From assembly GCF_056712565.1 (NCBI RefSeq), contig NZ_CM160072.1: a stretch of DNA of 64,000 bases; one strand, written 5' to 3'. The stretch's first letter is position 1. The number at the start of each line of letters is the position of its first letter. Below, piece by piece: positions 27,209 to 27,715 of this stretch. Both the position numbers and the translations under genes were made by a program. The notes below the pieces were generated by a model that was given only the letters and a program-made list of their open reading frames with translations, had not been told where the DNA came from and did not search any database.

Positions 27209-27715
27209 TGCCACTCCTTTTTCACAGTTCCTTGTGCGCGCTATTCTAACGAGAGAAAAGCAAAATTACGTCAATATTTTCATAGAAATCCGAAGTTATG
27301 AGTCATCTCTGAGATAACATTGTGATTTGAAACAAAATCAGCAGATAAAAAAGTGTTTAATTCTGTAAATTAAGCCTGCATTATCGCAATTAAAAGGATG
27401 ACAAATAGCATAACCCAATAACCTAATGGCCCAGTAGTTCAGGCCATCAGGCTAATTTATTTTTATTTCTGCAAATGAGTGACCCGAACGACGGTCGGCG
27501 CGCTTTTCTTATCCAGACTGCCGCTAATGTTGCTCATCTGGTCCGGCTGAATTTGAAAATTATTATAACGGAAGGGTATACAAAAAAAGTAATTTTGCTG
27601 GCGACTGCGAAACGGCATTCGCATTAGCGGTGAAGTTTGCCCTCGCCCAGCTGCTGCAATTACTGCTATAACGAGGCTGGTCTGGCGATAAATCCAGGCC
27701 AGCCATTGGTTGTGT

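Follow-up and report, generated by a model that had tools for sequence, protein, structure and literature searches.

YdeI has been linked to peroxide tolerance. It is a periplasmic OB-fold protein, and in Salmonella, where it interacts with OmpD (PMC6370654), it has been linked to antimicrobial-peptide resistance in the account that PMC6370654 gives of Pilonieta 2009. RcdA binds the spacer between ydeI and ydeJ in K-12, and expression of ydeI was found to be RcdA-dependent in one medium (PMC3535384). The neighbouring gene product, YdeJ or RdsA (STM14_1830), lowers negative supercoiling in Salmonella, where its biochemical activity is unknown (PMC7387798). The protein family model NF002972 names YdeJ a '2-oxo-tetronate isomerase' while the Salmonella literature treats it as RdsA, a supercoiling regulator (PMC7387798). 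In Shigella flexneri, two candidate sRNAs, Ssr13 and Ssr37, have been predicted beside ydeJ, given without a sequence (PMC4782007). A search of the literature for reported loss of ydeI or ydeJ in B2 or uropathogenic strains returned nothing specific.

Results

The dgcZ-dcp interval retains only the 3' ends of ydeI and ydeJ

The DNA analyzed here, referred to as the window, is the whole 64,000-nt stretch of NZ_CM160072.1 (GCF_056712565.1), and all positions are window positions. A query of positions 27206-27715 matched the chromosome of the E. coli type strain, DSM 30083 = ATCC 11775, at 100% identity. The K-12 annotation gives the order dgcZ, ydeI, ydeJ, dcp, just as a preliminary description of this DNA had given it, with 1,484 bp between dgcZ and dcp that contain ydeI (393 bp, minus strand) and ydeJ (519 bp, plus strand). 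In the window, the distance between dgcZ (26318-27208, minus strand) and dcp (27716-29761, minus strand) is 507 bp. This agrees with the preliminary description, which had put the interval at about 500 bp without ydeI or ydeJ, and its further statement that no open reading frame (ORF) of 60 codons or more is present was borne out by our ORF listing. A four-way alignment of the window, O2:H6 PG20180057, NRZ105822 and K-12 revealed two gaps with clean flanks, and the interval is made up of the following features, in part overlapping.

27209-27462, no strand assigned: dgcZ upstream region, formerly the dgcZ-ydeI intergenic region, kept intact and colinear with K-12 in the alignment
27419-27454, minus strand: retained hairpin that closely follows the ydeI stop codon and now separates dcp from the dgcZ promoter region (folding)
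27463-27551, minus strand: ydeI 3' remnant, consisting of the stop codon, the 28 codons for YdeI residues 103-130 and, before these, 2 nt of codon 102 (tblastn, alignment, partial NF007471 match)
27463-27624, minus strand: 53-codon ATG-initiated ORF, put together by accident from the ydeJ remnant read antisense, the spacer and the tail of ydeI (ORF listing, tblastn)
27549-27553, no strand assigned: junction of a 505-bp deletion, with 2 bp of microhomology (AA, 27550-27551; breakpoint analysis against NRZ105822)
27552-27592, no strand assigned: 41-bp leftover of the 275-bp ydeI-ydeJ divergent spacer, 22% GC (alignment)
27591-27671, plus strand: ydeJ 3' remnant, the last 25-26 codons, NFAGDCETAFALAVKFALAQLLQLLL, followed by the stop codon (tblastn with K-12 YdeJ, PGAP fragment)
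27592-27593, no strand assigned: junction of a 475-bp deletion, with 1 bp of microhomology (A; breakpoint analysis against K-12)
27675-27704, no strand assigned: retained hairpin flanked by the stop codons of ydeJ and dcp (terminator scan and folding)

In connection with ydeI, a tblastn search of the whole window with K-12 YdeI gave a single match (E ~1e-14 to 3e-17), located in the frame of the 53-codon ORF, and the homology was limited to YdeI residues 103-130, of which 26 of 28 were identical. The suggestion in the preliminary description that the C-terminus of this frame might be the tail of an OB-fold YdeI-like protein was thereby substantiated. Compared with intact ydeI (YdeI/OmdA, of the YgiW/YdeI stress-tolerance OB-fold family; TIGR00156, NF007471), the remnant shares the syntenic 3' end, the stop codon and the hairpin after it, but it has only 28 of 130 codons, with no promoter region, start codon or signal peptide and with most of the OB fold missing. 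Relative to NRZ105822, the 505-bp deletion removed ydeI codons 1 to ~101 together with 201 bp upstream, including the region encoding the signal peptide MKFQAIVLASFLVMPYALA, and its junction was unchanged in all seven double-scar genomes (those with both deletions) that we sampled. To count as a member of the YdeI/YgiW family, a protein had to reach the curated cut-off across all ~130 positions of the profile. K-12 YdeI scores 258.9 bits with NF007471, the YdeI equivalog profile, over positions 1-130, whereas the 53-aa ORF product reached 43.6 bits against a cut-off of 179 (profile positions 81-130 only) and, with TIGR00156, 32.7 bits against a cut-off of 108 (positions 92-126 only), and so falls outside the family in both score and profile coverage. 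Judged by alignment and profile scores, the ydeI remnant is a pseudogene fragment and not a functional family member. It carries the substitutions I109S and A122T, which were absent from all six intact YdeI sequences in our small sample, a pattern that relaxed constraint would predict.

Likewise, a tblastn search with K-12 YdeJ matched the window at one place only, 27591-27671 on the plus strand, a second remnant that the preliminary description had overlooked. Relative to K-12, the 475-bp deletion extends from 35 bp upstream of the ydeJ start to codon 147, such that the start codon and ~146 codons are lost. Compared with intact ydeJ (RdsA in Salmonella; CinA/PncC-domain, NF002972), the fragment has the same syntenic 3' end followed by the same hairpin before dcp, but it holds only 25-26 of 172 codons, with the start and the 35 bp upstream of it deleted. 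It spans residues ~147 to 172 and falls short of the full CinA-PncC domain of ~170 aa, K-12 YdeJ scoring 329 bits with NF002972 over positions 1-171. The identical 475-bp junction is found in genomes that have kept ydeI and lost ydeJ, and the 41-bp spacer is identical in those genomes as well, while it differs from K-12 at 7 of 41 positions. These 41 bp are what the deletions left of the ydeI-ydeJ spacer, the sequence bound by RcdA in K-12.

Both fragments thus show partial homology at the syntenic position, a missing start or promoter and defined junctions, as expected of pseudogene remnants. Indeed, their status as pseudogenes is already known from the RefSeq annotation of the same genome. 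In ATCC 11775, PGAP lists 27463-27552 (minus strand) as a pseudogene, 'TIGR00156 family protein', with the N-terminus missing, and 27591-27671 (plus strand) as a pseudogene fragment, 'hypothetical protein, incomplete'; in genomes with the same sequence the latter fragment bears PGAP's name for ydeJ, and across double-scar genomes the remark on these fragments is 'incomplete; missing N-terminus'. The idea of a deletion remnant put forward in the preliminary description therefore holds for ydeI, where we can add the exact 505-bp junction and the PGAP call, but it was incomplete in that there are two deletions and the ydeJ fragment had been missed. When the junctions were searched for IS ends and for long direct repeats, only short chance matches were found. 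Microhomology of 1-2 bp with no IS or repeat scar points to recombination of an illegitimate (microhomology or slippage) type, by which, we infer, both deletions would have arisen.

The dgcZ upstream region has a GC content of 35%, and query positions 1-349 were 96.8% identical to K-12. Within 27293-27421, the type strain and UTI89 differ from the five other double-scar genomes at 7 sites in ~130 bp, among them a single-base indel (27303) and a GC/CT dinucleotide change (27374-27375). By these sequence differences, the type strain and UTI89 represent a distinct haplotype of the dgcZ promoter region.

The two deletions define three nested allelic states in E. coli

We compared the interval across 5,426 complete E. 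coli genomes by means of segment-specific searches. The ydeJ segment was present in 3,618 genomes and the ydeI segment in 4,372, while at least 80% of the interval was covered in 1,794 genomes. A 151-bp probe consisting of ydeI upstream sequence and the ydeJ junction was fully covered in 758 genomes, and only from the ydeI junction onward in ~1,029; among the matches listed for double-scar genomes, all begin at probe position 71, which is the ydeI junction. These counts yield three nested states.

Both genes intact: about 3,614 genomes (67%)
ydeJ deleted only: 758 genomes (14%)
ydeI and ydeJ deleted (the state of the window): about 1,030 genomes (19%)

At most four genomes have ydeJ without ydeI, and so the ydeI deletion arose in genomes that had already lost ydeJ. 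Single- and double-deletion genomes share one ydeJ junction and an identical 41-bp spacer; the ydeJ deletion therefore came first, and the ydeI deletion followed, probably once.

The double scar is present in UTI89, BEN2908, O25b:H4-ST131, ABU 83972 and ATCC 11775, and the ORF also has database entries from IHE3034, clone D i2, NRG 857C, UM146 and JJ1886. We take all ten to be phylogroup B2, and the double scar is common to every B2-type strain seen here. SMS-3-5, which lacks ydeJ only, is presumably of phylogroup F and is the sole ydeJ-only genome to which we assign a phylogroup; K-12 and O157:H7 have kept both genes. In ABU 83972, an asymptomatic bacteriuria strain, dgcZ and mgtT are annotated as frameshifted pseudogenes beside the same ydeI/ydeJ scar.

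The 53-codon ORF is a chimera within a frame of chance length

The minus-strand ORF at 27463-27624 had been given with exact coordinates and translation in the preliminary description, as our ORF listing showed, whereas the surrounding stop-free frame, said to run for ~94 codons to 27745, is in fact 86 codons long (27466-27723), with an in-frame TGA upstream at 27724-27726. The first ~25 residues of the ORF are a translation of the antisense ydeJ fragment and the spacer and the last 28 are the YdeI tail, and the ORF is therefore a chimera. The frame is there because the ydeI tail is open by inheritance and, by chance, no stop interrupts its continuation through the spacer and the antisense ydeJ fragment. 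Among 2,000 dinucleotide shuffles of 27206-27760, 27% contained a stop-free run of at least 86 codons, and if the last 29 codons (the ydeI tail) are taken as inherited then the chance of 57 further open codons is ~6%. The length of the 86-codon frame is within chance.

Sequence checks for a ribosome binding site, a promoter and purifying selection, as would be expected for a small-protein gene, gave none of the three. No Shine-Dalgarno sequence was found at a usable distance upstream of the ATG; the sole GAGGG ends 15 nt upstream, in keeping with the earlier remark that the ORF has no clear Shine-Dalgarno. A consensus scan found no promoter-like site in the interval. No Rfam family was found in the interval either, in a scan of 25800-28000 with E up to 1 that yielded only MgrR/STnc560, outside the interval, and a meaningless weak viral match. 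The frame is open in 7/7 double-scar genomes sampled, but 4/4 polymorphisms among them in the ORF and 7/8 in the 86-codon frame are nonsynonymous, and the few sites available in these seven genomes gave no sign of purifying selection on the ORF. Gene callers have deposited the identical 53-aa product as a hypothetical protein on >1,000 contigs, and some GenBank submissions label it an 'OB-fold domain' protein. That the frame is open in all seven genomes and the product so widely predicted means that decay has not yet destroyed the frame. From these sequence features we consider that the ORF and the wider frame would be neither expressed nor functional.

Two hairpins are retained between dcp and dgcZ

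With ydeI and ydeJ reduced to fragments, dcp is now followed in the same orientation by dgcZ at a distance of 507 bp, with two hairpins between them. The hairpin at 27419-27454 has a 14-bp stem and a minimum free energy of -25.1 kcal/mol (z = -3.8 relative to shuffled sequences). It is not followed by a clear U-tract and the terminator scan did not call it; the fold and position suggest that it is probably the old ydeI terminator. The hairpin at 27675-27704 (z = -4.5) folds with -25.6 kcal/mol on the plus strand and -18.2 kcal/mol on the minus strand. It is the sole terminator-like site in the terminator scan of the interval, being terminator-like on the plus strand. In the direction of dcp transcription it is weaker and no U-tract follows it, so that transcripts reading through from dcp could cover the ORF. 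Reading the spacer directly, we also noted TTGAAA at 27553-27558, with TATACA 18 nt later.

Other gene losses and gains in the window

The window contains further gene-loss scars (yneK, ydfJ fragments, the missing lsr operon) of the same reductive kind as the ydeI/ydeJ scar, but these are independent events at other loci. The yneK gene is a 102-bp fragment (~13878-13979) annotated as 'missing C-terminus', while it is 1,116 bp long in NRZ105822 and SMS-3-5. Of ydfJ, encoding an MFS transporter, a 264-bp 3' fragment is left at ~33384-33647, compared with 1,368 bp in O2:H6 PG20180057 and SMS-3-5, and there is no Qin-type prophage at the site. At ~3077-5731, hipB and hipA come straight after tam, and the lsr operon for AI-2 uptake, which follows tam in SMS-3-5 and, we assume, in K-12 as well, is absent.

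Between eamA and marB (~17376-23551) there is a six-gene island encoding a GntR regulator, PTS IIB, IIC and IIA components, a carbohydrate porin and a 6-phospho-beta-glucosidase; O2:H6 PG20180057 and SMS-3-5 have this island, whereas K-12 and NRZ105822 lack it. On the minus strand at 26093-26306, opposite the small-protein genes mgtS and mgtT, Rfam gave a strong match (281.9 bits) to STnc560, presumably the Salmonella name for MgrR.

Discussion

The feature is a real and ordinary deletion scar. We put at roughly 93% the probability that the interval as a whole is the scar of two deletions and has gained no new function. In this course of events, an ancestral dgcZ-ydeI-ydeJ-dcp arrangement, as in K-12, first underwent the 475-bp deletion of the ydeJ start region and ~146 codons. 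The 505-bp deletion followed in this ydeJ-less background, in the lineage of the type strain, UTI89, ST131 and ABU 83972, taking away the ydeI promoter region, the signal peptide and ~101 codons. Left in place are the 3' end of each gene, 41 bp of spacer, two terminator-like hairpins and an intact dgcZ upstream region, and strains with the double scar would accordingly lack YdeI, the periplasmic OB-fold protein of stress and antimicrobial-peptide tolerance, as well as YdeJ/RdsA.

The pattern of presence and absence, taken by itself, would also fit an ancestral empty site, with ydeI and ydeJ as later insertions in the K-12 lineage. This candidate was rejected, as the gene-tail homology at syntenic positions already contradicts it: insertion cannot yield in-frame 3' fragments of both genes at these positions. 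There is moreover an intermediate state with intact ydeI and the same ydeJ junction, and Salmonella has both genes (PMC6370654, PMC7387798), leaving this explanation with next to no chance of being correct. Together with the Salmonella literature on ydeI and ydeJ (PMC6370654, PMC7387798), the retained gene tails argue for loss and not gain. We regard it as very improbable, too, that the 53-codon ORF, in full or in a shorter version from the second ATG, encodes a genuine small protein specific to this lineage, made by read-through from dcp and reusing the last strands of YdeI. Such a protein would account for a frame that is open in all seven sampled genomes and widely predicted by gene callers, and the hairpin after dcp, with no U-tract on the dcp strand, would let transcription through; yet the ORF has neither a usable Shine-Dalgarno nor a promoter-like site, its product is without the signal peptide and ~78% of the OB fold and scores far below the family cut-off, every polymorphism in it alters an amino acid, its length is within chance, and RefSeq does not accept it as a gene.

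A different possibility is that the scar is partly active, selection having filtered the deletion end points such that both hairpins were spared and insulate the dgcZ promoter region from dcp transcription, possibly with a short plus-strand spacer transcript that ends at the second hairpin. Both hairpins were indeed kept and fold far better than shuffled sequences, both deletions end 85-90 bp before the gene ends, the region upstream of dgcZ is intact, and the TTGAAA and TATACA motifs of the spacer are 18 nt apart. Two deletion events, however, give no end-point statistics, the promoter scan calls nothing in the interval and there is no Rfam match in it. We therefore consider this reading unlikely, and it is in any case compatible with a double deletion scar and not exclusive of it.

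The open frame is an artefact of gene decay that should not be annotated as a gene, despite its appearance on >1,000 contigs, and the nested deletions, 475 bp and then 505 bp, provide a three-state marker that tracks deep E. coli lineages. There is perhaps a slim chance that the loss of YdeI and YdeJ/RdsA matters for the strains concerned, which make up ~19% of complete E. coli genomes. If it does, these strains could have a shifted tolerance of envelope stress or a shifted supercoiling set point, and the tandem arrangement of dcp and dgcZ could alter expression of the diguanylate cyclase DgcZ, and hence biofilm behaviour, in extraintestinal pathogenic lineages; in a weaker version of this idea, the chimeric 53-codon ORF or a short spacer transcript may be expressed. 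The major B2 pathogen clones that we sampled (ST131, ST95 and ST73 types) would be without both YdeI and YdeJ, and results obtained on ydeI and ydeJ in K-12 or Salmonella should be extrapolated to these clones with caution.
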